Assembly (NCBI GenBank): GCA_023140195.1
Contig: JAGLME010000001.1
Span: 193,146-257,145 of the forward strand
Direction: 5' to 3'
Source of the DNA: Thermoplasmata archaeon
Lineage (GTDB): Archaea; Thermoplasmatota; Thermoplasmata; RBG-16-68-12; SOIM01
Length of the DNA: 64,000 nt
The notes beneath the pieces are model-generated. The model ran no database searches, was not told where the DNA came from, and saw only the letters and a list, made by a program, of their open reading frames with translations. The first letter of the stretch is position 1. Every line of letters starts with the position of its first letter. Below, one piece after another: positions 777 to 18,902 of the stretch. A program made the position numbers and the translations under genes.

Positions 777-777
777 T

Positions 778-2092: not shown

Positions 2093-5000
2093 ATGGATGT
2101 CGTAGTTGTTGGATCTGCGGTTGTTCTTATCGGGACTTTCATTATCTTAGGGTTGCTGGCGGTCCGCTCGCGCATGATCTTCAGGATCGCCGTTCGGAAC
2201 TTCCTGAAGAGGAAGAGGTCCACATTGTTCGCTGTTTTTGGACTCGCCGTTGGTGCCGCTATCGTGACCGGTTCTCTTGTTGTTGGGGATTCGCTGGAGA
2301 ACGCCGTGGTGCAGTCGACCTTTCTGAACCTGGGTGCGGTGGATGAGGCCGCGCGGTCGGTCGGCGTGTTCAACCAGTCAATTGCAGATGAGGTAAGGGT
2401 TCAGCTTCTGGGCACTGAAATCGACGCAGTGGCACCGTTAATGGTCCTTCCCGTTTCGGTAAAGGACAACAATTCGGGTGCGAGACAATCCCTCGTGAAT
2501 ATCATCGCCTTCAATGACGATTTCCTGGATTTTGGTGATTTCAAACTCAATGATGGGTCGATTTTCAGCGGACCCCTCGGATCCGATCATGTGATCATCA
2601 ATAGAAAGCTGGCTGACAACCTTCGTGCGTCAGCATTGGATGTTCTGAATGTTTCGTTCCGCACACCAGAGTTCTCCTTCGAGACAGTCTATTCACCCAT
2701 CACCTCCCTTCAATACGCTCACTTCACGGTCGCCGAGATCGCGGACAACTCCGGCTTGGGCAGGTTCCAACTTGGAAGCAGCGGGGTGGTCCCGGAGAAC
2801 ATGTACGTGAGGCTGGATACCCTGCAGCAGATCCTTGGTCTGGAAGGAAAGGTCAACACGGTGATAGTCTCCAACGAAGGCGATGAGATTGCAGGTGTGG
2901 AGGACTCTTTGCGCGTCACCCGCTTGCTGGAAGATGTTTTCGATGATCAGATTGGTTATGAGGACCTGGGTTTCTCGGTGACACCCAGTAGTTACGTGAA
3001 GATGGACAGGAAGCAGATATTCTTCGAGGACCGGTACCTTGACATCGTGCTGAACATAACCTCCAACTCCCCCTTGGTCGAGGAGGTTTCCCAACTGACC
3101 TCGTATTTCTTCAACTGGGTCGGGAATGACTCATCATTCGTGGCATATTCTGTGTCTACGGGATTTGACCCGGCAGTGGATTCCGCATTCGGTCTGTTTG
3201 AGAGGAGCAGCAACAGTGAACTCATTGTGGGGGAGATCGCCGATGACGAGGTCATCATCAACGAGTATGTTGCGGGCAGACTGGGGATTGGTGAGGGCTC
3301 AACGGTGACCCTCAACTACTCAGTCTATGATGAGACGTTCACAGAAGTCTTCCAGTACGAGGATTTCACCGTCAAGTATGTGATTAATCTGACTGGGAAG
3401 GCCGATGACAGCGAACTCATGCCCCCCTTCCCTGGAATAAAGGGAAAGGCCAGTTGCGGTGACTGGCACCCGCCCATAGCCTTGGACGTTCAATCGATGA
3501 TGGTGGGCGAGGACCTCGACTACTGGATAACCTATGGCGGTAGCCCTAAGGTGTACGTCACACTCGACAAATCCAGGGAAATGTGGGCGAACGATCTGGG
3601 CGACATCACAACGATCAAGATAATGCCTACGGTCGGAACCAATGTGACCGTGCTGGCTCAATGGATGGGCACCCAACTCAATGAGTCCATAGGGCACAGG
3701 GATGCCGGGATAACGATATCACCGGTCAAGAAGGAAGGAATCGAATCGGCCGAAGGCGTCCAGATAGTCACCGAGACATACATCGCCTTTGGCAGTGTGG
3801 TCATACTCGCCGGAATGCTCTTGATAGTCCTGTTCGTAGGGACCTCCGCCGAGGAGAGAAGGAGGGAGATCGGGATCGTCAGGACGCTTGGAGCCACCAG
3901 GAAGAAGACAACGCTTTCTTTTATTTTCGAAGGTTCCATCTTGTCGATAATTGCTGCTGTGATCGGGGCCCTCCTAGGGATTCTTGTGGCCGTCATCAGT
4001 GTCTGGATGACCAACGAATTCTGGTCGAACCTCGTCGAGGGGAACCAGATCTCCCTTCACCTTACACTGCCAACGATCATGCTTGGGATGATGTCCGGAT
4101 TCTTGATTTCACTGATAACATTCGCATTCGCATCCTACTCGATTGCCAAGATGAGGATCGTGGAAGCTCTTCGAAGAATCTCCATGAGAAACATCAAGAA
4201 GTCTCGGGGCATCGGATCATTGCTCTTGGCCGTCCTCGGATCTCTTCTGATAATCGTCGGTTTCGTAATCAAGGTGGACCCATCCTTCCTCGGAATGTTG
4301 TGGCTGTTCGGTCCTGTGTCCCTGATGATGGGTATTGGATTCTTTGCGAAGGCAAGGTTCGATACCAAACTGGGAACTGGCATAGTCGGCGTAGCATCGA
4401 TTGCCTACACTCTTGTCTTCGATATGGTCTTCCTGTCCACCTACAACGAACCCGCCTTCATCCTGTTCTTCCTCAGTGGATTCGTAATTATTCTGGGAGC
4501 CGCTGTTGCTTTGTGGTCAGGGGTTTCCGTGCTCTCAAGATTGCTCAGTCGTTCGTCTGTGACCACAGTGGCGTTCTCAAATCCTATGCGGAAGCCAGGT
4601 CAGTCCACAATGACCATCGCCATGTTCGGGCTCGTGGTCTTCACACTCGTCGCATTGGCCGTGAACATATCCGGTCAGCAGGCGAACATAGACCGTGCCG
4701 TGGAGGAACAGAGCGCCGGATATCAGGTACTGGCCGAGGCAACTACGCCTGTCAGATTCGATTTGGGGGAAGAGCTGGTATCGTCTGCGGGCAATACGAC
4801 TCAATTCCTCACTGAGGTGACCACGGTTCAGTTCTCGACCTACGGCTCTACCGGAGGGACTTGTAGCAATCTCAACAGCAATCTTCCACCACGGTTGATC
4901 GGAGCCAATGGGACGTTCCTGCAGGATAACACATTCGTATTCTCCTCTTCACAGGATCATGATCCGTCGGACCCGGAAGGGGCCTGGTCGGAGCTCGATG

Positions 5001-5746
5001 GGGTTCAAGCCGATGGGTCCATCCCAATCGTGGGTGACACCAACACGATCATCTGGATCTACGGCAAAGGGGTGGGGGACACCATCCCGATAACCGACGA
5101 GAACGGGCAGGACAGGGAACTGCTGGTGGTCGGCATACTTCGAAGTTCCATGTTCAGCGGCTCGGTATTCCTCTCCGATGAGAACCTGGATGGCCTCTTC
5201 CCAACGAAGGCGGAGTTCAGTATGTTCCTATTCAAGACAGAGGAACCTGAACAGCTGGTGACATATCTCGAAGAGAATATGGACTCGTATGGAATGGACG
5301 CCACACTCGTTGAAGAGAGAGTGAGGGAAGACCTTGAGGTCGAATGGTCATACATGTCACTGTTCCAGACCCTGCTTCTGTTCGGCCTTGTGGTCGGAAC
5401 CGCCGGCCTTGCTTTGACATCGGCGAAGTCTGTCTCAGAAAGAAGGAATGAGATTGGCATCCTCCGATCCCTTGGATTCAAGCGCAGCATGGTGCTTCAG
5501 GCCTTCTTGTTGGAGAACCTGTACATCTCTTTGACCGGGACAGTCCTGGGTGTCGTATTCGGTCTGCTGGTGTCTTTCATCTTCTTCGGACCTATCGGGG
5601 GTCAAGGCTATGGGGTTGTTGTCCCATGGCTTACCATTATCATCATCGTCCTTACAGTCCTGGTATCTACTCTTCTCTCAACCGCAGGACCATCCATCAG
5701 GGCCGGAAAGATGAGGACGGTCGATGCCTTGAGGGTCGAGGAGTAG
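2093..5746 (+). CDS. ABC-transporter permease with two FtsX-like 4-TM modules and large extracytoplasmic domains (MacB/YbbP-like)
   Basis: It starts MDVVVVGSAVVLIG...RIAVRNFLKRKRS, a typical FtsX N-terminus. There are two FtsX cores (…ERRREIGIVRTLGATRKK… and …ERRNEIGILRSLGFKRS…). The first 125 aa of the listed ORF are spurious overlap with the ACAD gene. No adjacent ATPase gene is present. Confidence 0.65.
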   Translation: MDVVVVGSAVVLIGTFIILGLLAVRSRMIFRIAVRNFLKRKRSTLFAVFGLAVGAAIVTGSLVVGDSLENAVVQSTFLNLGAVDEAARSVGVFNQSIADEVRVQLLGTEIDAVAPLMVLPVSVKDNNSGARQSLVNIIAFNDDFLDFGDFKLNDGSIFSGPLGSDHVIINRKLADNLRASALDVLNVSFRTPEFSFETVYSPITSLQYAHFTVAEIADNSGLGRFQLGSSGVVPENMYVRLDTLQQILGLEGKVNTVIVSNEGDEIAGVEDSLRVTRLLEDVFDDQIGYEDLGFSVTPSSYVKMDRKQIFFEDRYLDIVLNITSNSPLVEEVSQLTSYFFNWVGNDSSFVAYSVSTGFDPAVDSAFGLFERSSNSELIVGEIADDEVIINEYVAGRLGIGEGSTVTLNYSVYDETFTEVFQYEDFTVKYVINLTGKADDSELMPPFPGIKGKASCGDWHPPIALDVQSMMVGEDLDYWITYGGSPKVYVTLDKSREMWANDLGDITTIKIMPTVGTNVTVLAQWMGTQLNESIGHRDAGITISPVKKEGIESAEGVQIVTETYIAFGSVVILAGMLLIVLFVGTSAEERRREIGIVRTLGATRKKTTLSFIFEGSILSIIAAVIGALLGILVAVISVWMTNEFWSNLVEGNQISLHLTLPTIMLGMMSGFLISLITFAFASYSIAKMRIVEALRRISMRNIKKSRGIGSLLLAVLGSLLIIVGFVIKVDPSFLGMLWLFGPVSLMMGIGFFAKARFDTKLGTGIVGVASIAYTLVFDMVFLSTYNEPAFILFFLSGFVIILGAAVALWSGVSVLSRLLSRSSVTTVAFSNPMRKPGQSTMTIAMFGLVVFTLVALAVNISGQQANIDRAVEEQSAGYQVLAEATTPVRFDLGEELVSSAGNTTQFLTEVTTVQFSTYGSTGGTCSNLNSNLPPRLIGANGTFLQDNTFVFSSSQDHDPSDPEGAWSELDGVQADGSIPIVGDTNTIIWIYGKGVGDTIPITDENGQDRELLVVGILRSSMFSGSVFLSDENLDGLFPTKAEFSMFLFKTEEPEQLVTYLEENMDSYGMDATLVEERVREDLEVEWSYMSLFQTLLLFGLVVGTAGLALTSAKSVSERRNEIGILRSLGFKRSMVLQAFLLENLYISLTGTVLGVVFGLLVSFIFFGPIGGQGYGVVVPWLTIIIIVLTVLVSTLLSTAGPSIRAGKMRTVDALRVEE

Positions 5747-5882
5747 CCAGTGCAGATTGCCAAATCCAAAACGTTTATATCAGAATCGCAGAATCTTTGG
5801 AGTATCGGAAGGAAGTCCAGATTCCAGCTGGACGGTTTTGGATGGTAACAGAGAACGGGAAAACACGTAGGGTGTCTGTGAA

Positions 5883-7559
5883 ATGAGAAGACTCAGAAAT
5901 GGCGTTTACTTGGCTGTTCTACTTCTGCTAATAACATCTTCGCTGAGCGGATTCCCAATGGCGATGGGTGATGAGACTCCAACCAGAGGCGATGGATCGA
6001 ACGAGGAGGCCAGGTGGGCTCAGTTCAGAGGCAATCTCAACAACACTGGATATTCTATCTCCACAATTCCCACCACCAATGACAGGTTCATGGAGTTCCC
6101 CACTCAGTGGCCAATACAATCCTCCGCAGCCTATGCGAACGGGGTGATATACTTCGGTTCACAATCCAAGATGGTATATGCGGTAGAGGCTTCAACTGGC
6201 GTGGAACTCTGGAACTACACCTTCGATGCTCCTGTGGATTCGACTCCATACGTTCACGAGGACACCGTGTACGTTGCGACTGCCAGTTTTGCCGACCCGG
6301 GACTGCACTCTTTCAATGCGACCACCGGTGAACTGCTGTGGTCATTTAACGTCAGTGGGCCAATCGTGGGTTCTCCCAAGTACTACAACGGTGCCGTCTT
6401 CTTCGGTTCGAAGGACCACAACTTCTACGCAGTGAACGTTACCGATCAGAGCCATTACTGGGGTGCACCTTTCCAGACTGGAGGAGCCATATGGGGAACG
6501 CCCGCCATCGCCGATGGACGGGTGTTCATTGGATCAAATGACGGCAATTTCACGAGCATATGGATTGAGAATGGGACAGTGGATTGGAACTTCAGCATCC
6601 CATCCGTCAATGACAACGATGTCAGGTACTCGAGCGCCGCCGTTTACAATGGCAGGGTGTTGGTCGGATCCGACGACGATAAGGTCTACTGCTTAGATGA
6701 GTTCACAGGTGACGTCATATGGACATTCACCACCAATGACTTCGTATACGCATCCCCCGCGGTTCACAATGACACCGTTTTCGTTAGCAGCAACGACTTC
6801 AACTTCTATGCTCTCCCCCTCTACGAGCCTTCCCCGCAAGATGGCATAATAGACAGCAACGATGTCATTTGGTCGGTCCCCACGGATGATTTCCAGGGAG
6901 GATCTTCAGCCGCTGTGGCTGATGGGAGGGTGCTGATTGGCTCGACGACCCTCGGCCTGATATGCGTGAACGAAACCGATGGGAGCTTCTTCTGGAACCT
7001 GACGATCCCCAGAGGCACTGTATCCTCCCCAACTGTGGTCGATGGCAAGATCTTTATCGGGGGGAATAATGGATTGATGTACGGACTCGGGTCCTCTGGC
7101 CTCCCGTCGCTTGAGCTTGAGATCATCCCGGACAATGAAGCACTGAAATCTAACCGTGTGATGGGAATAACCTTCTTAGCCACTCACGACCAGGAGCCGG
7201 TCGAGGGGGCTTTTGTCAGCCTAACAGTTTCAATTGGAGAACTATCACAGCAAGGCGCCAGCACTTTCTCTGATGGAACCAATAGGGTCAAGTACACCGC
7301 CCCAACGGTCCAGCAGAACACCACACTCACCATCACCGCCGTTGCCAGCAAGTTCGGGTTCGAAGATGGGAAAGCGACCTACCAGATAGTCATCGAGCGG
7401 GGGACCGCATACGAGAACACCACCACCAAGGCAGAGTTCCCGTGGTACAAGTATTACGGTTACATTGGGGCGATTGTCGTTCTTATCGTCTTGAATGTCG
7501 TTCTCGTTATCGTTTTCATTCGGAGGAAGGGCGAAGAGGAAAGGGGGGATACCGCATGA
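5883..7559 (+). CDS. secreted PQQ-repeat beta-propeller protein with C-terminal TM anchor
   Basis: It has an N-terminal signal peptide (LAVLLLLITSSLSG). Repeated PQQ/BamB-like blades carry VYxGSxDxxxYA motifs. The C-terminal hydrophobic helix (IGAIVVLIVLNVVLVIVFI) is followed by RRKGEEER. Confidence 0.6.
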   Translation: MRRLRNGVYLAVLLLLITSSLSGFPMAMGDETPTRGDGSNEEARWAQFRGNLNNTGYSISTIPTTNDRFMEFPTQWPIQSSAAYANGVIYFGSQSKMVYAVEASTGVELWNYTFDAPVDSTPYVHEDTVYVATASFADPGLHSFNATTGELLWSFNVSGPIVGSPKYYNGAVFFGSKDHNFYAVNVTDQSHYWGAPFQTGGAIWGTPAIADGRVFIGSNDGNFTSIWIENGTVDWNFSIPSVNDNDVRYSSAAVYNGRVLVGSDDDKVYCLDEFTGDVIWTFTTNDFVYASPAVHNDTVFVSSNDFNFYALPLYEPSPQDGIIDSNDVIWSVPTDDFQGGSSAAVADGRVLIGSTTLGLICVNETDGSFFWNLTIPRGTVSSPTVVDGKIFIGGNNGLMYGLGSSGLPSLELEIIPDNEALKSNRVMGITFLATHDQEPVEGAFVSLTVSIGELSQQGASTFSDGTNRVKYTAPTVQQNTTLTITAVASKFGFEDGKATYQIVIERGTAYENTTTKAEFPWYKYYGYIGAIVVLIVLNVVLVIVFIRRKGEEERGDTA

Positions 7560-8782
7560 GTTCGGTAAAGAAGCTGGTATCCATTGCTTTGGCCTTCCTT
7601 GCATTCTCCCTGACATTCTCTCCTTCGGTTGCCGGTCAAGGCGACGAGTTCGATGTCAAAACCCTGGGCCTGCTCTGGGAAAGCGAACCGCTTCACAATG
7701 CTACTCTGTGGTCCATCGAATGGTCCCCCAACGGTTCCCTCATTTCGGCCACCTTATTCGACAACACAACAGTCATAGTCAATTCCACCACCGGGGAGAA
7801 GCTCGTCGAGATAGGGTCCCATCAGGAGGAATGGGAACGGACCAGGTGCGATGCGATAAAGGAGTGCGGAATCGATCCTCACTTTCCGGCAAGGACCAGC
7901 GCCTGGTCACCGGACGGTCAGTATCTGGCAGTAGGCGGGGATAATACATTGGTGATCATCTACGAAACCGAAACGTGGGAGATAGTGAAGATACTCTTTG
8001 GCCATGAAGGAAGCGTTCTGTCCGTGAGCTGGTCTCCCGATGGGAAGTACATTGCATCCGGCTCCGGGACAGACAAGGTCGATATGCACAACCTCCCTGA
8101 GAATCTGATCAAGATATGGGATTTCGAACAAGGCATCGCGGTCCAGAACCTGACCGGGCATAGGGACGGCATATTGGAGTTGAGATGGTCCTCAGATCAA
8201 TCAAGACTTGTTTCGGCCTCTGACGATAAGTTCATCAAGCTGTGGAACACGACCAGCTGGGACAACTACCTCAATCTCACTGGGCACACGATCGGCGTTC
8301 TGAGCCTAGACTGGTCCCCAAACGAGACCATGCTTGTGTCCGGCAGCAGGGATTATAAGATCAGGGTGTGGAACACGACAACCGGCGAGGAGCTGAGCAG
8401 ATGGGCCGCTCCCAATTGCGTCAGGTCGGTCGACTGGCACCCTTACGAGAACATCATTGCCGCTTCAGGAGTTACGGAAGCCTACCTCATGATCAGGAAC
8501 GCCACAACCGGGTCCATTCTCAAGACAATCAGGGACAACGATGACGCTGGGGGCGTTATCCAATCGAGTGGCTGGTCCCCCGACGGAAAAAGGCTGGCCA
8601 GTGGATCGAACGTCGAGTTCAAGATACGGGTATATGAGTTTGGGATCGGAGGGGACACCGAAAGGACTGGACCGGCTCCGTGGTTGCTTGGCATGATCGT
8701 CTTCTTTGTCATCTTCACTCTTATCATCGTTGTAATGGTGGTGCGAATACCGGCGAAGATCAGGAAGTTCGAGAGGAGGTGA
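7556..8782 (+). CDS. secreted WD40-repeat beta-propeller protein with C-terminal TM anchor
   Basis: The ATG overlaps the upstream stop (ATGA). A signal peptide (LVSIALAFLAFSLTFSPSVAG) is present. WD repeats are visible (VLSVSWSPDGKYIASGS, IKIWD, LVSASDDKFIKLWN, LVSGSRDYKIRVWN). The C-terminal TM is LLGMIVFFVIFTLIIVVMVV, followed by a basic tail. Confidence 0.6.
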   Translation: MSSVKKLVSIALAFLAFSLTFSPSVAGQGDEFDVKTLGLLWESEPLHNATLWSIEWSPNGSLISATLFDNTTVIVNSTTGEKLVEIGSHQEEWERTRCDAIKECGIDPHFPARTSAWSPDGQYLAVGGDNTLVIIYETETWEIVKILFGHEGSVLSVSWSPDGKYIASGSGTDKVDMHNLPENLIKIWDFEQGIAVQNLTGHRDGILELRWSSDQSRLVSASDDKFIKLWNTTSWDNYLNLTGHTIGVLSLDWSPNETMLVSGSRDYKIRVWNTTTGEELSRWAAPNCVRSVDWHPYENIIAASGVTEAYLMIRNATTGSILKTIRDNDDAGGVIQSSGWSPDGKRLASGSNVEFKIRVYEFGIGGDTERTGPAPWLLGMIVFFVIFTLIIVVMVVRIPAKIRKFERR

Positions 8783-8854
8783 ATTGGACTGAAGATTTCC
8801 AGGGTTGGAGTTTCATTCGTTCTTGCGTTCATTCTTCTCACTTCATCAGCGATC

Positions 8855-10141
8855 GTGGTGAGAGCTGAGATCGACGCCGAGTTCCTGGGTAGCGGTCCCG
8901 GGAGGTTCAATTCACTGGTCGTCTCCGACATAGACGAGGACGACAACATCGAGATAGTCCTGGGCAACTACGAGGGTCACATCAACATAATCGAGTACAG
9001 GGACGGCGAGTACATCGAGGAGTGGAGGAGCGAGAAGCTTGGTACAAGACTCTGGGGCATAATGGTGGCCGATCTGGACGGGGACGGGAACAACGAGATT
9101 ATAGCAGGCACCGGAGAGGGCGAGGTCTTCATCTACGATGCCAAGACCCACGAGAGGAAATGGAAGAGTCCCGAACTGATCAGAGACGCTCATGGATTCG
9201 CCGTCGGGGACGTGGACGCGGACGGGCAGAACGAGTTGATAATCGGCACCGGATACAAGACCGACACTCCCTGGGGCACGGTATACATCTACAATGGAGT
9301 GAACCTGACACTGGAGGCCAAGATCGAAGAGCTGGGTTCGCGGATAAGGGCCATATCCGTCCACGATGTAGACGGCGACGGGGTCAACGAGCTCGTATTC
9401 GGCACCGGTCATGCTCTCGGAGAGACGCCCGGGGAGGGTTACATTCACATTTACCAGTATGATGGCCAACGATACGTGAGGGAGTGGAAGAGCCCTGACC
9501 TCAACGGCGATCCAGAAGGAATGCTCATCAAGGATGTGGACGGGGACGGCAACCTCGAGATCGTGGCAAGCAACGGGTACAGATACTTCCCCGGGTTCCT
9601 TTACATATTCAGATACTCAGGCGGTCTGGGTGTGGGCGAACCTGACATATACGAGATGGTGCTGGAGAGCGACGACATCGGACCCAAGGCGTATGGTCTG
9701 GATGCCGCGGACATCGATGGCGACGGCATAATCGAGATAGTCGTCGGCAACCAGCCGGGGTACATCTGGGTGTTCGACGGAAGCACCCACGAGGTCGAAT
9801 GGAAGAGCGATTTATTGGGCACCGACATCTTCGGGATTAAGTTGTATGACATCGACCGGGACGGACAGATGGAGATAATCGCCACTCAAGGCGGGTATCA
9901 GGGAAAGGCTGACTTCACCAGCGCCTACACAACCCCACACATTTTCATCATTGATGGCAAGACCCATACGATCGAGGAGACCATTGGAGAACCGGACTAC
10001 TTAGCTTTTGCATTCCAGATCGTCATCGTCACTCTCGTGATCGTCTTCCTTGTCCTGTTGAACATCATCGTCAGAAAGAAGAAGGTGCAGAAGGTCACGA
10101 CAGAGCAGCCAAAGGAGGTGGTGGCGTCATCGGAGAGCTGA
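8855..10141 (+). CDS. FG-GAP/integrin-alpha-like beta-propeller protein with Ca-binding DxDxDG loops and C-terminal TM anchor
   Basis: DxDGDGxxE motifs recur (DLDGDGNNEII, DVDADGQNELI, DVDGDGVNELV, DVDGDGNLEIV, DIDGDGIIEIV, DIDRDGQMEII). A C-terminal TM and KKK tail are present. The hydrophobic signal-like segment (KISRVGVSFVLAFILLTSSAIV) is in frame upstream back to 8783 but has no ATG, GTG or TTG, so the true start is probably noncanonical. Confidence 0.55.
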   Translation: MVRAEIDAEFLGSGPGRFNSLVVSDIDEDDNIEIVLGNYEGHINIIEYRDGEYIEEWRSEKLGTRLWGIMVADLDGDGNNEIIAGTGEGEVFIYDAKTHERKWKSPELIRDAHGFAVGDVDADGQNELIIGTGYKTDTPWGTVYIYNGVNLTLEAKIEELGSRIRAISVHDVDGDGVNELVFGTGHALGETPGEGYIHIYQYDGQRYVREWKSPDLNGDPEGMLIKDVDGDGNLEIVASNGYRYFPGFLYIFRYSGGLGVGEPDIYEMVLESDDIGPKAYGLDAADIDGDGIIEIVVGNQPGYIWVFDGSTHEVEWKSDLLGTDIFGIKLYDIDRDGQMEIIATQGGYQGKADFTSAYTTPHIFIIDGKTHTIEETIGEPDYLAFAFQIVIVTLVIVFLVLLNIIVRKKKVQKVTTEQPKEVVASSES

Positions 10142-10194
10142 TTGCCGCCGCAGGCGTCGGTCTTTCGTTCGGCGGTGCCTGGCTTTGCGCCCTG

Positions 10195-10815
10195 GTGTCA
10201 TTCGGGGTCACATCAGAGGACAAGGTACGGGGGATGTACTTCATTCTCGGGAGGATTATTGGCTTGGTGTTCCTGGGACTTGCTATTGCGACCTTCAGCT
10301 TCTTTGCCGACCTTCCACCGCTCTATTTCGTTGTGGCTTTCGGCATCCTATCCATTCTCTTCGGTGTCATTGTCATCTCACAAGTGACTGGGTTCTCGGA
10401 ACGATTTGCGGGGATTTGGCCCTGGAAGAAATCCAGTGAAACAGGGAATCCAGGCAAGCACCACGGGAAGAAGCACTTCAAGAAAGCTCTCAGGGAAGGG
10501 GCTAAGGCCAGGAAGTTCAAGAACAGCTACGTATTCGGCCTGGGCGTCGCGAGAGGCGCCACCCCTTGTCTCAAGATATTGATACTGGTCCCGCTGCTGG
10601 TGGCTGTGGACATCTATCTGGCGCTTGCTATCATACTCGTCTATGCTCTCACTTCCACAATCTATCCAATCATCGGATTCCTGTCAGGCAGTCTCCTTCA
10701 ATCGGTGGAGAAACAAGCACTGTATGTCAAGGTTGGAGCTGCCCTGGTTCTGGTTGCCGTCGGTGTCTACTCGATCATAAACGTCCTCACTCAGTCGCAC
10801 ACAGGAGGAGGCTGA
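10195..10815 (+). CDS. DsbD/CcdA-superfamily-like polytopic membrane protein (transmembrane thiol-disulfide/electron transfer family), start uncertain
   Basis: There are six or more predicted TM helices. A GATPCLKILILVPLL motif resembles the CcdA TPC...P motif. A second Cys-containing helix (GVGLSFGGAWLCALVSFGV) lies in frame upstream of the first canonical start (10141-10194), which implies a noncanonical start. Confidence 0.35.
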   Translation: MSFGVTSEDKVRGMYFILGRIIGLVFLGLAIATFSFFADLPPLYFVVAFGILSILFGVIVISQVTGFSERFAGIWPWKKSSETGNPGKHHGKKHFKKALREGAKARKFKNSYVFGLGVARGATPCLKILILVPLLVAVDIYLALAIILVYALTSTIYPIIGFLSGSLLQSVEKQALYVKVGAALVLVAVGVYSIINVLTQSHTGGG

Positions 10816-10816
10816 G

Positions 10817-11779
10817 ATGGGGAAGTTCTGGCAGCGCATCAGCACACCACGACTGATCGCACAATTCGGATGGCTTGTCTTCGCCAACGCCTTGCTTTTC
10901 GGTGTCCCCTCCTTTGGTACCATTGCGTGGACGAGGAACATCTACTTCCCTGATGCCACGACCAAGTTCCTACAGAACGCCCCCACATACTCAATCGTCT
11001 ACAAGCTGCAGGATACACTCGAGGGCGGGTTCATTACGTACTACATGGACCTGGTGATACCTCTTCTCATATTCGTGGTGCTGATCCTCTTGTTGGGCAG
11101 ATTCTGGTGTGCATGGCTGTGCCCTCTGGGACTTCCCCAGGACCTGCTCACCAGATTGAGGAGATGGCTCGGCTGGAAGAGGGTCGAGCTCCCCCCGAAG
11201 TGGTCGGTCGCTCTGCACCAGATGAAGTACTTGGGTCTGTTCCTGGTCATCTTCTACACCCTTTCGCTGGGCTTCCCAGGACTGGGCCTCCCGGGTTTCC
11301 GAACTTCGCTGGCCATACCGTACGAGCAGCTCGATCCGAACCGGGCGATGTACGTCTATCCACAGATCGCATTGGGGCTACTGCCGCCCAACACCATCGT
11401 CCCTATCCTGTCTTTGCTCACTTTCGGGTTCTTCCTGATGACGTGCTTCCCCATCCGGAGGTTCTGGTGCCACATCTGTCCTGCCGGCGCTATGATGGCC
11501 CCCTTCAACAAGTATGCATCCATACATCTGAAGAAGGACAACTCCAAGTGCACGCACTGTGGCATATGTGCGAGGGTCTGCCCAATGGAGATCAGGAAGG
11601 TGTGGACTGAAAGGGAGAAGGAGAACGTGACCGTCTCGGAATGCGTTCACTGCTATAGATGTGTGGAGGAGTGTCCTGAAGATGGATGCCTGGGCGTGTC
11701 GGTCATGGGCAAGGTCGTTCTAGAATCCAAATCACCAAATAGTGAGTTGACGAATACGAAGGAAGGTGTCGCCACTTGA
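10817..11779 (+). CDS. NapH/MauN/CcoG-type membrane-bound polyferredoxin
   Basis: It carries two GRFWCxWLCPxG / RRFWCHICPAG motifs that are diagnostic of the NapH/MauN/FixG family. Two C-terminal 4Fe-4S CxxCxxCxxxCP motifs follow (CTHCGICARVCP, CVHCYRCVEECP). Confidence 0.65.
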   Translation: MGKFWQRISTPRLIAQFGWLVFANALLFGVPSFGTIAWTRNIYFPDATTKFLQNAPTYSIVYKLQDTLEGGFITYYMDLVIPLLIFVVLILLLGRFWCAWLCPLGLPQDLLTRLRRWLGWKRVELPPKWSVALHQMKYLGLFLVIFYTLSLGFPGLGLPGFRTSLAIPYEQLDPNRAMYVYPQIALGLLPPNTIVPILSLLTFGFFLMTCFPIRRFWCHICPAGAMMAPFNKYASIHLKKDNSKCTHCGICARVCPMEIRKVWTEREKENVTVSECVHCYRCVEECPEDGCLGVSVMGKVVLESKSPNSELTNTKEGVAT

Positions 11780-13146
11780 AGATCTTCGGCAGGAGGAAGT
11801 CGGAACCAGAAGCAGTCGATAATGCCGGGTCAGTCGCCGTTGAACGAAGGTACGTTCCGGTCAAGGTCAAGGAAAGGATGACCGGCCGTCGGGACAAGGT
11901 CGTGAGAGAAGCCAAGGAGAAGATACGGGTCGAGACCGAGAAGATCAGGGCCATTCCCAACAACCCGGAGTCGTTGGACCATTTCCTGGAGATCGGAGAT
12001 TACTTCGGCAAGAGGTCGGAGGAGATAATCGGTTTCAAGAACAAGGGCGGGAAGGTCGTGGGGACGTTCTGCGAGTTCGTTCCCAAGGAGATCATCCATG
12101 CCGCTGGGGCCATACCAATACAGCTTTCATGCGGGTTCTCGGAAGCCATCCAGCCAGCGAACGACCTGCTTTCGGATGCCGGTCTGTGCCCTCTCATGCG
12201 ATCCTCGCTGGGGACCATGATGACTGGAAGTTCAACATACTATGAAGCAAGTGACATGATGGTCAACCCCACACCGTGCGATGCCAAACTGAAGATGGGT
12301 GAGATTATTCAGGACCTTGTACCAGTTGTCACCATGAATGTTCCCCGGATCAAGGACAGTTTCTCTGCAAGGAAGCAGTGGATCCAGGAGGTCTGGAACC
12401 TCAAGGAGAGGGTGGAGGAGCTGGTCGGTAAGAAGATATCGAAGAAGGCGCTTCGAGAATCCATCGAGACGTATCAAGCGGCTCAGAACGCCTGGCGGAA
12501 GTTCTGGGACGTCAGGAAGAGGGGGAACGTGATCTGGGGCAGGCAAGCGCTGCTCGTATCGTGGCTCACCTACATCGATGACATCAAGAGATGGACCAAG
12601 AACATCAACAAGCTCAATGCGGAGCTGGAGACCAGGGTGAAAGAGAAGAACTTCGTTTGCGGGGATGACACACCCAGGGTCATGCTAGCCGGTTCGCCGA
12701 TCATTTGGCCCAACTGGAAGATACTCAACCTCATAGAGGAATCTGGCGCGTACATCGCGTGTGACGAGCTTTGTTCTGGGATGAGAGTGCTCTGGGACCA
12801 CACCGTCGTTGACGAGTGGACCCAGAAGGGAATGATGGACGCCATCGCTGACAAGTATTTCCTACCCTGCACGTGCCCTTGCTTCAGCCCAAACCTGGAA
12901 AGGGAAACGAACATGTTGCGGAGGATCAAGGAATACAAGATCGATGGTGTGGTCTTCCACGTCCTCAAGGGATGCCACCTGAACAGCATGGATGCGGCTA
13001 AGACCTCAGTCTTCCTGAAGAAGAATGACATTCCAATGTTGAAGATCGAGAGCGAGTATGACGAGGGCGACAGGGAGCAGCTCAGGATAAGGATCGAAGC
13101 CTTCTTGGAGATAATACAGACCAGGAAGGAGGATCTGCCGTTCTAG
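11776..13146 (+). CDS. 2-hydroxyacyl-CoA dehydratase / benzoyl-CoA reductase BcrC-BadD (HGD-D, PF06050) family protein
   Basis: The length and conserved Cys pattern fit the family (FCEF, LCPLM, PTPCDAK, IACDELCSG, LPCTCPC, GCHLNS), as does overall similarity to HgdB/BcrB-type iron-sulfur subunits. No cognate activator ATPase is seen. A TTG start overlaps the upstream stop; an alternative ATG lies at 11878. Confidence 0.5.
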   Translation: MKIFGRRKSEPEAVDNAGSVAVERRYVPVKVKERMTGRRDKVVREAKEKIRVETEKIRAIPNNPESLDHFLEIGDYFGKRSEEIIGFKNKGGKVVGTFCEFVPKEIIHAAGAIPIQLSCGFSEAIQPANDLLSDAGLCPLMRSSLGTMMTGSSTYYEASDMMVNPTPCDAKLKMGEIIQDLVPVVTMNVPRIKDSFSARKQWIQEVWNLKERVEELVGKKISKKALRESIETYQAAQNAWRKFWDVRKRGNVIWGRQALLVSWLTYIDDIKRWTKNINKLNAELETRVKEKNFVCGDDTPRVMLAGSPIIWPNWKILNLIEESGAYIACDELCSGMRVLWDHTVVDEWTQKGMMDAIADKYFLPCTCPCFSPNLERETNMLRRIKEYKIDGVVFHVLKGCHLNSMDAAKTSVFLKKNDIPMLKIESEYDEGDREQLRIRIEAFLEIIQTRKEDLPF

Positions 13147-13181
13147 TTCTGCAGTGGCGTTGTTGAAGCGGATGGTAGTCC

Positions 13182-13340
13182 ATGAAACATATGCGCAGAA
13201 GGGTCATTGAGATTGAGGAGCAAGAAGGCAATAAGGTCAAGTGCCCACTCTGCGGATTCCGATGCAGGTATTGCCCTCTGGCATCATTATCTACATGTGG
13301 TAGGCTTGAAAGGCGGTTGGAGTCTGGCGAATGGTCGTGA
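13182..13340 (+). CDS. possible 52-aa Cys-rich mini-protein (CPLCGFRCRYC)
   Basis: It is below the ORF-track size cutoff, with the four-Cys motif CxxCxxxCxxC. It lies directly after the HGD-D family gene, and there is no other support. Confidence 0.2.
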   Translation: MKHMRRRVIEIEEQEGNKVKCPLCGFRCRYCPLASLSTCGRLERRLESGEWS

Positions 13341-13446
13341 TCCGGATTGTGCGTGCGTGGCGCGTCACGTTTTTATAGTTCACAGACCATTTTTGGACAG
13401 TATTGCTGAACGGTGGGCAGAAGATGATCAGAAGTTGTGAGGATAC

Positions 13447-16400
13447 TTGGTGGTTACTATGACTAGTGCAAATAGACATGGCGTTTCTAAGATGTGGGCT
13501 CTTGCTGTTGTCATCGCTCTTCTTGCTTCATCTCTAATTGCTCTGTGGATGACAAGCCCACAGGGAGATGCTGGGCTTGGTGCGACCGCGTTCCCTGACG
13601 AGCCAGGAACTCACCCTCTCGGGAGCAGTGGAGACGATCCTAGACCTACCGGAACCACACTGTTCCCGTGGCCCATGCAGCTTCATGACGAACTGCACAG
13701 GTCGTACACTTCCGCTCCCGCTCCAGATTCCAGCGCCGTCCTGTGGTCCAACGCCACTGGCCCGTCCACGTATGGGTCACCCTCCGTTGCCGATGGAAAG
13801 GTGTTCATCGGCGCTCGGACACCTATTGGAGACCGCATGTTTGCCTTCCACCAGGACAATGGGACCCAGGCCTGGAGCACACCGACCGTTCAACCTGTTT
13901 CGGGTGGGTTAGGTGTGACCTCATCACCGGCATACTCCGACGGGTTAGTCGTCTTCGGCGGTGACCGGATATACTGCCTTTGGGCAAGCAACGGGACCGT
14001 CAAGTGGACCGTGAACACCGGTAATAGGAACTGGGGAGACGGGACTCCCACGATCGCTGATGGCAAGGTCTTCATTGGGGGATCCGATAGGAAGCTCTAC
14101 GCAATCGACTTGGATACTGGCACCGTCCTTTGGACACACCAGACTCTCTCAATACTGGGCACCAATTATGGTCTGTATTCCGCGCCCGCAATCTATAACG
14201 GCCACGCTTATCTTCCGGCATGTGACGGCTGGGTGTATCAGATATTGATAGACCAGCCTGGGCCTATCGCAGTTGTGAACCACTCTTATAACACTGGATC
14301 CTCAATGTATGGGTCACCGGTGATTTTCGACAACAAGGTGTACATCGGTAACGGCTACACTTTCAACAACGTCAACAACCGCTTCTATGCGTTGGATGCA
14401 ACCGACCTGAGCTTGGTGTGGGAGTTCTACCCTGGGTCAGGAACGAGCTTCTTGGGGTCGGCAGCGATTGCATACGACAAACTCTTTGTAGGGTCGGTGG
14501 ACGGTAACCTCTACGTTCTCGATCCGTACGGTGGTGGGGGTTCCACGACGATTATCTGGCAATACTCAATCGGGCAGACATGGTCATCTCCAGCAGTCTC
14601 CTCGGGCAAGGTATTCATAGGGTCCAAGTCAAACTTCCTCTACGCCTTTGATGTCAATCAGACAGGACCACCGACATATCTGTGGAGATACAACACCAAC
14701 GGAAATGTGGACTCCTCTCCGGCTATTGCCGACGGCGTGCTCTTCATAGGCAGCCATGGAAACGGCGGGATGATCTATGCCTTCGGACAAGGAGGCGATG
14801 TTATCTCTCCATTCCCGATCTCGGTATCTCCCACTGGAACTGGCGTTCCTGTGAACACGGACATTGTGGTGGTGTGGAGCGAGGTTATGGATTGGACCTC
14901 GGTGGAGGCGTCCTTCAGCTACACTGATATGTCGACCATTTGGACATCTGCTGACGGGACTTTCAATCATTATCCAGTGAACCGAACGTCTATATTCAAT
15001 CCATTTGTGGATCTGGATTTCTCGACAACATACTGGGTAACATTCAGTTCCGTTGCCATAGATCTAGCTGGTAATCCTCTTGACGGTGACGGCAACGGTG
15101 CTGGTGGCGATGATCTCGTTTGGTCCTTTGACACCGTCATTGACAATTCTCCATCCCTGAACCTGTGGGAGCCCGGATCAACGTCTGGACAAAGCTACAC
15201 GGTTGGCACAATGGTCCTGATCGTCTGGGAGGCAAGCGACGACGCATCTTGGCCCAATGGTGGGAACGTAATCAACCTCACTTATGGTGTCAGTCCGTTC
15301 GGTGGGACCACGATATCTCAGTATGAACTTGAAGATGGGAGTTTCAACTGGGATACGACCGGTGAACCACTCGGAACGTACTACGTCAATGTCACCGCTT
15401 ACGATTCACTCGGACAGGTCTCCGGGAGTTACAGCAACTTCTCCTTTGACATCGTCGCGATACCTGATTCGCCCCCGACCGTCAGCCTCACCGCTCCTGT
15501 TGGGGGCTTGAGCTGGTCCGGCGGGACATCGATTAACATTGACTGGACCATGTCGGATGACATTACGCTGGTGCAGAATCTGAACGTTTATCTCAATTAC
15601 TCTTCGTCAAGCGGTTCGGGTCCGATTGCCGGCCCTTTGACGGGCCTTTCTTCACCATCCAGCTATCCTTGGGCTCTTCCACTTCTCGACGCCACTGATG
15701 TCGTCGTTCTGATTGATGTCATTGACGAGTCCGGCAATGTGGGATTCGATTCGAGCGCACAGTTCGAGGTCGATTCCACACCTCCCATCCTGGATTCACA
15801 TTCTCCGTGGATCGACGAGACGAACGTTGCCACGAACGCCAACATAAACATCGAATGGCGCGAGGGAATGAACGCAGCCGCGACCGAAGCTTCGTTCTCA
15901 CTTCAAGATAACGCAACATGGACACTTGTGTCCGCTGTGTTCTCGTGGGGTGGGCCGAACATAACGATGTCCTTCAACCCCGATGCAGACCTTGCTCCCA
16001 ACAGCTGGTACACGGCGAACTTCACGACAGCCGCCAAGGACGACTCACAACCCGGGAACAACCTGGCATTCTACTCGTGGAGCTTCCTGACCGCCGCAGT
16101 TCCAGATTCTCTGCCACCTGAGATTACCAATATCCAGGCATCACCGAGTCCCCAAGAGGTCTTCTTCCCGGTTTGGATCAACGCTTCCATCACCGATCTC
16201 TACGGGATTGCAGAGGCACACGTCGAGGTGTTTGACCCATCACTGGCCCTCATCGGCAATTTCACCATGCAATACGACAGCGGCAATGACTACTTCTTCG
16301 CTCGAAACTACGACATGCTTGGAGTCCACAACTGCACGATATCATCAATGGACAATAACGGAAACTGGGCCCAGACCAGTTCTGGCTGTTCGTTCGAAAT

Positions 16401-17478
16401 GGCCGACAATACTGCGCCTCAAATATCCAATATCCTGAAGGTTCCCAGCCCGGTGGAGATCTTCAACATCATCAACATATCGGCTTCTGTAACTGACAAC
16501 TACGCTGTTCTCTCAGTGAACCTTGACATTGTCGCGGTGGATAATTTCATCATGACCATTGATCCGGGAAGCGGACGGTACTACCACGAGCACGAGTGCC
16601 AGATGCTGGGTCCGCACGATTTCACGATAACGGCATCGGACACATCAGGGAACTTGGCATCCGAGCAGGGGCAGTTCTACGCCATGGATACTGAGCCTCC
16701 GCAGATAGTACACACTCCGCCTTCTCGGGTAGAGGTCGGCTCCACGATAGACTTCCAGGCTACTGTGACGGATAACTACATGGTCGACAGCGTCTGGCTG
16801 AACTACACCGACGCTTCCAGCATTCATTTCAATGTCTCGATGACATCCCTTCCGGGGAACGTCTACCAACTCACTCTTCCAGTTCAGAACCAAGCTGGAC
16901 AGGTGGTTTACCACATTTATGCCAAGGACCTTGCCACCAACGGCGCTGTCACAGCGGTTCTTCAAGTATCGGTTGTTGACACCACTGATGATCTAGCTCC
17001 AATGCCTCCGTGGGGGTTGGTAGCAGAAGAAGGTCCCAATGGGGTTATTACCGTCCTGAGTTGGAGCAAGCCTGTTCTTAACGAGGATATGACCCTTTTG
17101 GATGATCTTGCTGGTTATCACGTATATCGGTCGGAGTCCGAAACAGGTCAGAAGACCCGGATCAACCCGGTCCTCGTGGAGACCACGGCCTTCATCGATG
17201 ATGACATCGAGAACGGAAAGACATACTATTACTGGGTCACGGCCATAGATGAATCCGCTAACGAGTCGGATTTCTCCACCCCTGCGGACATCTCATTTGG
17301 TTCAGAGGCAACTGGCGTTTCGTATGACATAATCCTGATACTCCTGGCCATCATAATCACCGTGGTCCTGTTGATCGCTGTTCTCCTCTGGCGAAAGAAG
17401 AAGGGTGAAGCCTCCGAAGAGCAGCAAGTGGAGGATAACGAAGAACCGACGTTCGAAGAGGAGACGGAACTCGAATAG
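13447..17478 (+). CDS. giant cell-surface protein: signal/TM, PQQ beta-propeller, tandem Ig-like repeats, FN3 domain, C-terminal TM anchor
   Basis: It has an N-terminal hydrophobic segment (MWALAVVIALLASSLIALW). PQQ/BamB-like repeats span aa ~90-450. Three ~100-aa internal repeats start PPEITNIQASPSPQEVFF / APQISNILKVPSPVEIFN / PPQIVHTPPSRVEVGS, each with a TD(L/N)Y core. A C-terminal FN3-like domain (YHVYRSE...YYYWVTAIDESANES) precedes a TM helix and an acidic tail. Confidence 0.6.
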   Translation: MVVTMTSANRHGVSKMWALAVVIALLASSLIALWMTSPQGDAGLGATAFPDEPGTHPLGSSGDDPRPTGTTLFPWPMQLHDELHRSYTSAPAPDSSAVLWSNATGPSTYGSPSVADGKVFIGARTPIGDRMFAFHQDNGTQAWSTPTVQPVSGGLGVTSSPAYSDGLVVFGGDRIYCLWASNGTVKWTVNTGNRNWGDGTPTIADGKVFIGGSDRKLYAIDLDTGTVLWTHQTLSILGTNYGLYSAPAIYNGHAYLPACDGWVYQILIDQPGPIAVVNHSYNTGSSMYGSPVIFDNKVYIGNGYTFNNVNNRFYALDATDLSLVWEFYPGSGTSFLGSAAIAYDKLFVGSVDGNLYVLDPYGGGGSTTIIWQYSIGQTWSSPAVSSGKVFIGSKSNFLYAFDVNQTGPPTYLWRYNTNGNVDSSPAIADGVLFIGSHGNGGMIYAFGQGGDVISPFPISVSPTGTGVPVNTDIVVVWSEVMDWTSVEASFSYTDMSTIWTSADGTFNHYPVNRTSIFNPFVDLDFSTTYWVTFSSVAIDLAGNPLDGDGNGAGGDDLVWSFDTVIDNSPSLNLWEPGSTSGQSYTVGTMVLIVWEASDDASWPNGGNVINLTYGVSPFGGTTISQYELEDGSFNWDTTGEPLGTYYVNVTAYDSLGQVSGSYSNFSFDIVAIPDSPPTVSLTAPVGGLSWSGGTSINIDWTMSDDITLVQNLNVYLNYSSSSGSGPIAGPLTGLSSPSSYPWALPLLDATDVVVLIDVIDESGNVGFDSSAQFEVDSTPPILDSHSPWIDETNVATNANINIEWREGMNAAATEASFSLQDNATWTLVSAVFSWGGPNITMSFNPDADLAPNSWYTANFTTAAKDDSQPGNNLAFYSWSFLTAAVPDSLPPEITNIQASPSPQEVFFPVWINASITDLYGIAEAHVEVFDPSLALIGNFTMQYDSGNDYFFARNYDMLGVHNCTISSMDNNGNWAQTSSGCSFEMADNTAPQISNILKVPSPVEIFNIINISASVTDNYAVLSVNLDIVAVDNFIMTIDPGSGRYYHEHECQMLGPHDFTITASDTSGNLASEQGQFYAMDTEPPQIVHTPPSRVEVGSTIDFQATVTDNYMVDSVWLNYTDASSIHFNVSMTSLPGNVYQLTLPVQNQAGQVVYHIYAKDLATNGAVTAVLQVSVVDTTDDLAPMPPWGLVAEEGPNGVITVLSWSKPVLNEDMTLLDDLAGYHVYRSESETGQKTRINPVLVETTAFIDDDIENGKTYYYWVTAIDESANESDFSTPADISFGSEATGVSYDIILILLAIIITVVLLIAVLLWRKKKGEASEEQQVEDNEEPTFEEETELE

Positions 17479-17502
17479 TTCTTAAGAAACGATCCGCATT
17501 CC

Positions 17503-18120
17503 GTGAAGAACATGGATAAGAAACACCTCGAACTGATGTTGGAGCGGGTCAAGCAGCATCCATCACCCAGGGCCCAGCTCGAGCAATATACCACACCGTC
17601 CACAATCGCAGCCGATGCCCTCTATCTTGCTCTGGGCCTCGGTGACATCGTTGAATGCAAGGTCGCGGACCTGGGATGCGGCACGGGCATACTGGCTATC
17701 GGGGCGAAGGTACTGGGAGCAGCAGAAGCCGTGGGCGTCGACATAGACTCTGACGCCATTGAGATCGCCAAGTCGAACGCTGAAGAGCTGGACGTGAACG
17801 TCAGGTTCGAGCAGATGTCCGTCCTCAAGTTCGAAGAAGAATGCGACACGGCAATACAGAACCCCCCCTTCGGAGCCCAGAAGAAGCACGCTGACGTCCC
17901 TTTCATCACCAAGGCCTTGGCAATATCTCCAGTTGTCTATTCATTTCATCTCACCAAAACCGAAGACTTCATAACAAAAGAGGCTGATTTACTCGGCGCG
18001 AGAATAACACACACCGTGGAATACAAGTTCCCGATACCTCACACGTATCCGTTCCACAAGAAGAAAGTGAAACATTTCGAAGTGACGTTGTTCAGACTAG
18101 AAGGTAGGAAATATGACTAA
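17503..18120 (+). CDS. class I SAM-dependent methyltransferase, COG2263/METTL5-like putative RNA m6A methylase
   Basis: The SAM-binding motif VADLGCGTGILAI is present. DIDSDAIE and NPPFG (the NPPF/NPPY amino-methyltransferase motif) are also present, and the ~200-aa size fits. Confidence 0.6.
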   Translation: MKNMDKKHLELMLERVKQHPSPRAQLEQYTTPSTIAADALYLALGLGDIVECKVADLGCGTGILAIGAKVLGAAEAVGVDIDSDAIEIAKSNAEELDVNVRFEQMSVLKFEEECDTAIQNPPFGAQKKHADVPFITKALAISPVVYSFHLTKTEDFITKEADLLGARITHTVEYKFPIPHTYPFHKKKVKHFEVTLFRLEGRKYD

Positions 18121-18891: not shown

Positions 18892-18902
18892 ATCACCTTT
18901 TC

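Follow-up and report, generated by a model that had tools for sequence, protein, structure and literature searches.

The stretch of DNA analysed here, referred to as the window, is a 64-kb part of contig JAGLME010000001.1 (positions 193,146–257,145; assembly GCA_023140195.1) of a Thermoplasmata archaeon. It contains seven almost spacer-free genes on the plus strand (5883–13340), namely the genes of three surface beta-propellers and, after them, a four-gene core (10138–13340) that encodes a DsbD_2/CcdA-type membrane protein, a NapH-like polyferredoxin, a double-cubane cluster protein (DCCP) and a small cysteine protein. In a preliminary description of this DNA, the core was noticed as four co-directional open reading frames (ORFs) among surface proteins. 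All four were found, and they close the seven-gene operon. The exact sequences of the polyferredoxin and the DCCP are present in NCBI under MCK5290547.1 and MCK5290548.1 (Thermoplasmata archaeon, metagenome-assembled genome). The features of the operon, in window positions, are listed below.

5772–5781, + strand: TATA-box-like element ACGTTTATAT upstream of the operon, seen by direct reading of the sequence and regarded as a putative promoter; a near-identical element lies 3' of the operon.
5883–7559, + strand: PQQ_2/BamB-like beta-propeller, first operon gene (Pfam PF13360 and PF13570), with a signal peptide and a C-terminal membrane anchor.
7556–8782, + strand: WD40 beta-propeller, second operon gene (Pfam WD40), with a signal peptide and a C-terminal anchor.
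8783–10141 (start approximate), + strand: FG-GAP beta-propeller, third operon gene (Pfam FG-GAP_3 and FG-GAP), with a C-terminal anchor and zero cysteines.
10138–10815, + strand: DsbD_2/CcdA-type six-helix membrane protein, 225 aa (core gene 1), starting at a CTG codon, with one cysteine in helix 1 (C17) and one in helix 4 (C144).
10817–11779, + strand: NapH-like polyferredoxin, 320 aa (core gene 2), with four membrane helices and matches to the Pfam Fer4_5 and Fer4 dicluster models.
11776–13146, + strand: DCCP, 456 aa (core gene 3), with a TTG start and a seven-cysteine motif; soluble, no hydrophobic segment.
13182–13340, + strand: small cysteine protein, 52 aa (core gene 4, orf52), with four conserved cysteines (C21, C28, C31 and C39); absent from public annotation.
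13368–13378, + strand: TATA-box-like element ACGTTTTTATA, kept in five genomes (sequence reading).

The junctions between the seven genes are, in order, ATGA, about 0 nt, cTGA, 1 nt, TTGA and 35 nt, and TATA-like elements occur only at the two ends of the region (ACGTTTATA before 5883 and ACGTTTTTATA after 13340). Since the junctions are tight and these elements are confined to both ends, 5883–13340 was read as a single operon; the ACGTTTTTATA element probably belongs to the promoter of the gene that follows and would thereby delimit the operon. The 4-nt overlap reported earlier between the polyferredoxin and DCCP genes is present as TTGA (stop 11777–11779, TTG start 11776). The near-contiguity of the DsbD_2-like and polyferredoxin genes was also seen, with a gap of 1 nt between the stop (10813–10815) and the ATG (10817).

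The product of core gene 3 had been taken for a 2-hydroxyacyl-CoA dehydratase/BcrC-family (HGD-D) protein. Its membership in the PF06050 superfamily held (325 bits), but the dehydratase or BcrC identity gave way to that of a DCCP. The protein scored 342.7 bits with NF040772 (double-cubane anaerobic reductase; model positions 15–372 of 372), 7 bits under the cut-off of 350, and 243–244 bits with the PDB entries 6ENO and 7YYL (E about 1e-71, residues 60–447). The dehydratase and benzoyl-CoA reductase models gave 67–126 bits (126 bits for HadC, 67–104 bits for BcrC and BzdN) against cut-offs of 421–700. The spacing of the seven cysteines is C99-x19-C119-x18-C138-x29-C168-x164-C333-x33-C367-x32-C400, and the published DCCP motif is CX19CX18-19CX29CX166-170CX32-34CX32C (PMC7317905); the C168–C333 spacer of 164 residues is thus two residues shorter than the published minimum. 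All six ligand cysteines were conserved without exception across 21 orthologues. No second PF06050 gene was found in the operon or among the other scanned genes of the window. Because the seven-cysteine motif is complete, the best scores are to DCCPs and the gene is single rather than one of a paralogous pair, its product, which has every sequence feature of a DCCP, is identified as such and not as a CoA-ester dehydratase.

The likeness to the DCCP and its reductase (DCCP-R) of Carboxydothermus hydrogenoformans (6ENO, 7YYL) includes the fold family, the seven-cysteine motif and a class I-like N-terminal extension, and relatives of the window DCCP keep an adjacent BcrAD/HgdC-type ATPase. The window gene differs in the shorter spacer and NF040772 score given above, in being joined to genes of a membrane polyferredoxin, a DsbD_2-type protein and surface proteins, and in having no activator in cis. 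With HgdAB, HadBC, BcrBC and BzdNO, the window DCCP shares PF06050 and, in its relatives, the type of ATP-dependent activator, whereas one HGD-D gene with seven cysteines stands here in place of two paralogous subunits with three cysteines each. DCCPs perform nitrogenase-like reductions in vitro; according to the published work, it is not known which substrate they act on in nature, what donates their electrons or what they do in the cell (PMC9351452, PMC7317905). They are treated in the literature as a soluble two-component system, without mention of a ferredoxin or a membrane partner (PMC7317905, PMC9351452). In a preprint, DCCPs were statistically linked to a selenoprotein/organometallic locus in anaerobic bacteria, with the substrate likewise unknown.

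The polyferredoxin encoded by core gene 2 matched Fer4_5 (PF12801) twice, as well as the dicluster ferredoxin models. A NapH/MauN/CcoG type had been proposed for it; this stood at the level of the Fer4_5 superfamily, but TIGR02163 (75.8 bits) and NF007013 (75.5 bits) were matched below their cut-offs of 213 and 234. Among the Fe-S motifs of the preliminary description, both CxxCxxCxxxCP motifs are present and their cysteines are invariant in 22 orthologues. The RFWCxWLCPxG motif, said to occur twice, is found in the first copy (GRFWCAWLCPLG), but the second copy is not an exact repeat and reads RRFWCHICPAG (C-x2-C). In total, 16 motif cysteines are invariant across the 22 orthologues. The motifs follow the order CAWLCP after helix 2, then CHICP and two CxxCxxCxxxCP after helix 4. 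The topology prediction that the preliminary description had called for (hydropathy, positive-inside rule) places the N-terminus inside and all cysteine motifs on the cytoplasmic side. The four helices, the two Cys-x(2-3)-Cys-Pro motifs at the cytoplasmic face, the two cytoplasmic [4Fe-4S] motifs and the genetic tie to extracytoplasmic proteins are shared with NapH, MauN, the NosR C-terminal domain and CcoG. In contrast to NapH and MauN, core gene 2 fails the corresponding models (75 bits) and its constant neighbour is a DCCP gene, not a NapG, NapA, Nos, Mau or Cco gene. Neither Mau nor molybdopterin genes were found among the scanned genes of the window. By its sequence and neighbours, the protein is classed as a NapH-type-like polyferredoxin and not as a NapH.

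The first canonical start codon of core gene 1 is GTG at 10195, and the CTG at 10138 overlaps the TGA of the upstream FG-GAP gene (cTGA). In total, 34 homologues of its product were found, and 17 of the 19 that were aligned span the N-terminal (M/L)IAAA..G.S...AW.C, which forms the first membrane helix. The true start was assigned to CTG 10138 because the homologues begin with MIAAA... and cover residues 1–225. The protein has six hydrophobic segments, and a 50-residue loop (82–131) with 13 Lys/Arg as well as His lies between helices 3 and 4; following the positive-inside rule, this loop is predicted to be cytoplasmic and both termini outside. The TPC...P motif noted earlier is present (ATPCLKILILVP), and C17 and C144 (RGATPC) are invariant in 24 sequences.

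The protein had also been described as CcdA/DsbD-like. At the level of the superfamily, this agreed with indirect evidence: PF13386 (DsbD_2) was matched by 4 of 20 close family members (best E 5e-10), but the window protein itself matched no Pfam or NCBIfam model, and PF02683 and PF13386 remained unmatched even at E<=1. Three family members weakly match Mntp, and one homologue carries the annotation RcnA. Alignment of the family profile with the canonical DsbD_2 of the bacterial-type module described below gave E 6e-5 and a probability of 65% (hhalign), and a PDB sequence search with the DsbD_2-like profile gave chance-level matches only. The AlphaFold model was poor (pLDDT 58); its top Foldseek match in PDB was CcdA 5VKV, a weak one (E 0.11, TM-score 0.38). 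The features common to CcdA, DsbD and DsbD_2 are six helices arranged 3+3 and one cysteine each in helices 1 and 4, the latter in T-P-C. The differences are the missing Pfam match, the lack of Pro-Cys in helix 1, the lack of a nearby thioredoxin-like partner, and the long His/Lys-rich cytoplasmic loop, which is reminiscent of metal transporters. Neither the scanned genes of the window nor the precomputed Pfam lists of related loci showed a thioredoxin-like domain. Taken together, core gene 1 was filed as a divergent protein of the DsbD_2 branch, putatively a thiol-disulfide relay or a solute carrier.

The last core gene, orf52, has exactly 52 codons in five genomes whose DCCPs are 79–98% identical; its ATG and TGA are kept and pN/pS is 0.10–0.35. 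A homologue occurs in a further variant of the cluster (locus L025). The conserved pattern is C21-x6-C28-x2-C31-x7-C39. The mini-ORF of the preliminary description was thus borne out as a gene by its fixed length and purifying selection, but the CxxCxxxCxxC motif given for it, although present in the window, includes C24, which is not conserved. Since the exact sequence is missing from the protein collection, orf52 appears not to have been called as a gene yet; judged by its conservation, it is a real small cysteine-rich protein. A derivation of orf52 from the N-terminus of NifB (CxxxCxxC) was considered and rejected: C24 is unconserved, selection is purifying at a fixed length, and L025 has both genes.

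In all three propellers preceding the core, hydropathy shows a hydrophobic signal segment at the N-terminus and, near the C-terminus, a membrane anchor with basic residues after it. In the PQQ_2 propeller, which is syntenic in about 20 loci, the hydrophobic segments are residues 4–22 and 528–546. The WD40 propeller has a conserved Cys-loop-Cys pair and a third conserved cysteine; orthologue alignment revealed no conserved cysteines in the PQQ-like and FG-GAP propellers, so that among the propellers only the WD40 protein carries them. The ATG of the WD40 gene (7556) overlaps the upstream TGA as ATGA. The WD40 and FG-GAP genes share one frame and are separated by a single TGA, and the FG-GAP signal peptide begins straight after the WD40 stop, where no ATG, GTG or TTG is present and the candidate starts are ATT 8783 or CTG 8789. 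In locus L009, the FG-GAP gene has an ATG at the equivalent position. Two consecutive operon genes (FG-GAP at 8780–8792 and DsbD_2-like at 10138–10141) therefore apparently lack a canonical start codon, which suggests termination–reinitiation at non-canonical codons or possibly read-through.

To evaluate the conservation of this neighbourhood, the family of core gene 1 was searched in one genome per species, which gave 18 loci, all from Thermoplasmatota. The order PQQ, WD40, FG-GAP, DsbD_2-like, polyferredoxin and DCCP is kept in 15 of them. The other three (L022–L024) contain only a distant DsbD_2-like paralogue in unrelated contexts, with no functional hint. Overall, the gene order is kept in about 40 archaeal loci, and it was also seen on many metagenome contigs. 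The conservation check proposed in the preliminary description thus found the arrangement again and again, in dozens of independent loci, which goes beyond chance. The synteny in 15 of the 18 Thermoplasmatota loci agrees with the earlier view of the four genes as a module, which is co-inherited and genetically tied to surface beta-propellers. A literature search yielded no paper describing a propeller/DsbD_2/polyferredoxin/DCCP gene set.

The slot after the DCCP gene varies by clade and is filled with orf52, a NifB-like radical SAM gene or an anchored Kelch propeller. The NifB-like gene is usually directly 3' of the DCCP gene and was found within the operon in L002 (11817–12680), L005 (10620–11450) and L027 (10434–11294), and also in L011, L013, L014, L016, L017, L025, L028, L032, L033, L035, L038 and L043. 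None was found in the window or in the bacterial-type loci. The NifB-like proteins gave 320 and 269 bits with TIGR01290 (cut-off 343.65), aligning with core positions 11–280 of 441 only, and 257 bits with PDB 6Y1X. They represent a short radical SAM core in the style of archaeal NifB, with HPC, CxxxCxxC and CxxCRADA motifs. Outside nitrogenase, NifB has been linked to the activation of methyl-coenzyme M reductase (PMC12176620); the literature search revealed no report tying NifB to a DCCP.

Several other observations concern this slot. The Kelch-repeat anchored propeller (about 350 aa) adds a fourth type to the anchored surface propellers; in L003 (13094–14155), L018, L019, L020, L021, L025, L027 and L043, its gene stands in place of orf52 or the NifB-like gene or alongside them. 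A 162-aa cysteine-rich membrane protein with no Pfam match is encoded next to the NifB-like gene in L027 (9949–10437) and L013 (13954–14316), and none was found in the window. Locus L028 (LRSM01000055.1, Candidatus Thorarchaeota archaeon SMTZ-45) is an 8-kb contig with the WD40, FG-GAP, DsbD_2-like, polyferredoxin, DCCP and NifB-like genes; the presence of this operon in an Asgard bin reflects either horizontal transfer or a binning error.

A different version of the module was found in about 16–21 loci (range L074–L102), where TonB-dependent receptor gene(s) and a DUF4198-like gene lie upstream of the polyferredoxin, DCCP and activator genes, in this order, followed in many loci by a DsbD_2 gene. 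The DUF4198-like protein has 320 aa, is anchored and shows weak similarity to DUF4198. The DsbD_2 proteins encoded after the activator are canonical (PF13386 down to 1e-27, PF02683 1e-13). Thus, the two-cysteine membrane protein of the DsbD_2 type accompanies the polyferredoxin–DCCP pair in archaeal and in many bacterial-type loci, and the bacterial-type loci examined contain no gene for any other inner-membrane permease. Judged by gene content, the quartet of polyferredoxin, DCCP, activator and DsbD_2 protein is widespread and repeatedly located beside proteins predicted to bind or import external matter. Representative bacterial-type loci are L086 (4826–13479) and L085 (5203–19390). In L085, an extracytoplasmic function (ECF) sigma factor gene precedes the module and OEP, HlyD and AcrB-type efflux genes follow it. 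In L062, a beta-propeller gene is directly 5' of the polyferredoxin gene, and some loci contain DsbD_2–polyferredoxin pairs without a DCCP. An Rfam scan gave no RNA match in positions 1–20000 of the window and only tRNAs in eight bacterial-type loci.

The preliminary description had pointed out that the usual ATP-dependent activator is missing and had proposed that the polyferredoxin replaces it. Activators were sought with a regular expression for the ASKHA N-terminal motif, with HgdC (identical to PDB 1HUX), with a hidden Markov model (HMM) of three sequences (HgdC, HadI and MbdQ) and with archaeal activators (tblastn, six-frame). The first point was upheld: the motif, tblastn and HMM searches found no activator in the window (best E 0.19), and no activator was found within 10 kb of the cluster in L001–L024 using the HgdC, HMM and archaeal activator probes. 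The second point found no support. In a metagenome scan that used the polyferredoxin alone as a query, a DCCP gene was located directly downstream of the polyferredoxin gene in 45 of the 62 loci with room for it, including those of distant polyferredoxins (29–36% identity). Among the 41 polyferredoxin–DCCP pairs with at least 1.6 kb of downstream sequence, 23 had one or two activator genes beside them (15/17 of the non-archaeal type and 8/24 of the archaeal type). Because both co-occur in cis in these 23 loci, the polyferredoxin is, as far as gene content can tell, a regular third partner beside the DCCP and its activator and not a substitute for the activator. A natural fusion of an activator (PF01869) with a DCCP was also found (P0154, 765 aa); it matches the window DCCP at 50% identity along 91% of its length.

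The full set of genes is present in L027, a locus located through a DCCP homologue: propellers, DsbD_2-like protein, polyferredoxin, DCCP, two BcrAD_BadFG proteins, Kelch propeller, cysteine-rich membrane protein and NifB-like protein. In assembly GCA_975970955.1, the cluster (L026, contig 44) has no activators, and an orthologous activator pair, 41% and 62% identical to that of L027, is located on contig 36 (L029) with no HGD-D partner beside it. This unlinked pair also argues against the replacement of the activator. The likeliest reason for the local absence of an activator in the window would be that it is encoded elsewhere in the genome. It was also observed that the pair in L029 (4804–10136) lies about 1 kb from genes of a heavy-metal P-type ATPase (HMA and E1-E2_ATPase) and a YHS-domain protein. 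The proteins of GCA_975970955.1 are named [Eubacterium] cellulosolvens in NCBI and its contigs carry the archaeal-type cluster with anchored FG-GAP and other archaeal-looking genes; the organism label is probably wrong.

These characteristics allow us to propose, with slightly more conviction than doubt, that the best explanation of the operon is an ATP-driven, membrane-tethered DCCP reductase acting on an externally captured, probably metal-containing substrate, its four core genes being co-transcribed with those of the three anchored propellers. Electrons would enter via the cytoplasmic Fe-S clusters of the membrane-anchored polyferredoxin and pass to an activator encoded elsewhere in the genome; energised there by ATP hydrolysis, they would reach the [8Fe-9S] cluster of the membrane-held DCCP. 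The substrate would be captured outside the cell, by the propellers in the archaeon and, in bacteria, by the TonB-dependent receptors together with the DUF4198-like protein. As the sole candidate for a trans-membrane link, the DsbD_2-like protein would most likely hand over or import a thiophilic, probably metal-containing substrate; such handling was favoured over a pure thiol relay because the bacterial-type loci examined offer no alternative inner-membrane permease and the neighbours are of the uptake type. The 52-aa four-cysteine protein could be an accessory metal- or cluster-binding subunit. Hints of a metal substrate are the His-rich loop and two membrane cysteines of core gene 1, the TonB receptors and DUF4198-like protein, the efflux pump, and the P-type ATPase at L029.

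Several points weigh against this proposal. The metal context is circumstantial, and no result fixes the direction of flow or the substrate. The activator is absent from the window and from the 10 kb around the cluster in 16 of the 24 archaeal-type loci, and its location elsewhere in this genome is deduced from one other assembly. The protein of core gene 1 has no Pfam match of its own, and its poor model gives only the weak match to CcdA mentioned above. The archaeal propellers have no catalytic signature, and conserved cysteines occur in the WD40 protein only. Further, the non-archaeal loci were called bacterial on the assumption that their TonB-dependent receptor and resistance–nodulation–division (RND) efflux genes indicate this, and all loci were gathered by homology-driven searches, so that the counts are not an unbiased census.

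A polyferredoxin that takes the place of the activator in this lineage and itself reduces the double-cubane cluster, perhaps powered by the membrane potential, would also fit three observations: the lack of an activator in the window, its absence within 10 kb in the 16 archaeal-type loci, and the absence of the contig holding the window among the sources of the 120 best, out of more than 7,900, homologues of an activator encoded in the cluster. We consider such a replacement very unlikely: with activators in cis in 23 loci, the polyferredoxin must have a role of its own, an unlinked activator pair exists in a relative without in-cluster activators, and the window DCCP is about 50% identical to DCCPs with adjacent activators and to the fusion P0154. 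In addition, the published double-cubane cluster is not reduced by ordinary low-potential reductants without the ATPase (PMC9351452). The NifB-like genes within the operon in many archaeal loci, with their scores to TIGR01290 and 6Y1X, together with the conserved four-cysteine protein and the metal-related gene context, could instead point to cofactor assembly, in which the DCCP-like, NifB-like and four-cysteine proteins build or carry a complex Fe-S cluster and the membrane proteins supply metal or electrons. This reading seems quite improbable, as the window and the bacterial-type loci have no NifB-like gene, the surface propellers would be left unexplained, and DCCP, for which catalysis has been demonstrated, acquires its cluster upon expression in E. 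coli in the absence of NifB (PMC7317905).

An outward export of reducing power, the alternative offered in the preliminary description, was also weighed. NapH-family polyferredoxins (NosR, MauN and CcoG) function on behalf of extracytoplasmic metalloenzymes; both NosZ and MauB have a beta-propeller fold. By analogy, the module might work like CcdA with a NosR- or MauN-type polyferredoxin and send electrons from cytoplasmic Fe-S clusters through the membrane cysteines of core gene 1 to the surface propellers. The top, although weak, fold match of core gene 1 to CcdA, its two invariant membrane cysteines, its translational coupling to the FG-GAP propeller gene and the conserved Cys-loop-Cys pair of the WD40 propeller are consistent with such export. 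Nevertheless, we regard it as unlikely, and the same applies to its details, namely that DCCP and the activator would perhaps energise the process and that the WD40 cysteine pair would be kept reduced or a propeller cofactor matured. Neither the window nor the scanned loci encode a thioredoxin-like partner on the inner or the outer side of the membrane, the PQQ-like and FG-GAP propellers lack conserved cysteines, the bacterial quartet adjoins importers, the TonB-dependent receptors, rather than redox enzymes, and it is not obvious what a catalytic DCCP would do in a plain thiol relay.

Compared with what is known, a DCCP with its activator, the new elements are the two conserved membrane partners, the surface propellers in archaea and, often, a NifB-like enzyme. 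We put forward tentatively, and with more doubt than belief, that this is an unrecognised cross-domain system of four parts, namely the membrane polyferredoxin, the DCCP, the ATP-driven activator and the two-cysteine protein of the DsbD_2 type. It would capture and take up an external substrate, probably bound to a metal, and couple this to a membrane-located reduction at ultra-low potential that is energised by ATP; archaea would also recruit a NifB-type enzyme to it. Such a system would provide double-cubane enzymes with the physiological electron donor and the cellular context that they have so far lacked. The recruitment, if true, would give NifB-made clusters a third use in biology, next to nitrogenase and methyl-coenzyme M reductase activation. 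The polyferredoxin and the two-cysteine membrane protein, which accompany the DCCP in both archaeal and bacterial-type loci, are concrete candidates for its partners; the flanking genes point to an origin of the substrate outside the cell, and the related archaeal loci with the short NifB-like gene link the module to NifB, the builder of the nitrogenase cofactor core. Each of these three leads can be turned into a defined experiment on DCCPs.

In the archaeal loci, the conserved order often extends to a giant FtsX/MacB-like protein upstream of the cluster and a large PQQ/Big_5 surface protein downstream. In the window, these neighbours are as follows.

1718–5746, + strand: FtsX/MacB-type permease-like protein, 1342 aa (Pfam FtsX and MacB_PCD), kept upstream in L007, L009, L011, L013, L014 and L016.
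13447–17478, + strand: surface protein, 1343 aa (Pfam PQQ_2 propeller, Big_5/Big_7), with a C-terminal anchor; a syntenic neighbour.

No ABC ATPase gene adjoins the FtsX/MacB_PCD permease-like gene. At the edge of the window, a fragment of a Ras/Roc-like small GTPase gene was found (78–776). Beyond 17478, the window contains housekeeping genes, among them those of a methyltransferase, an exosome subunit, serine hydroxymethyltransferase, ThiF, ThiI, pyruvate phosphate dikinase, gyrase, cysteinyl-tRNA synthetase and ATP sulfurylase.

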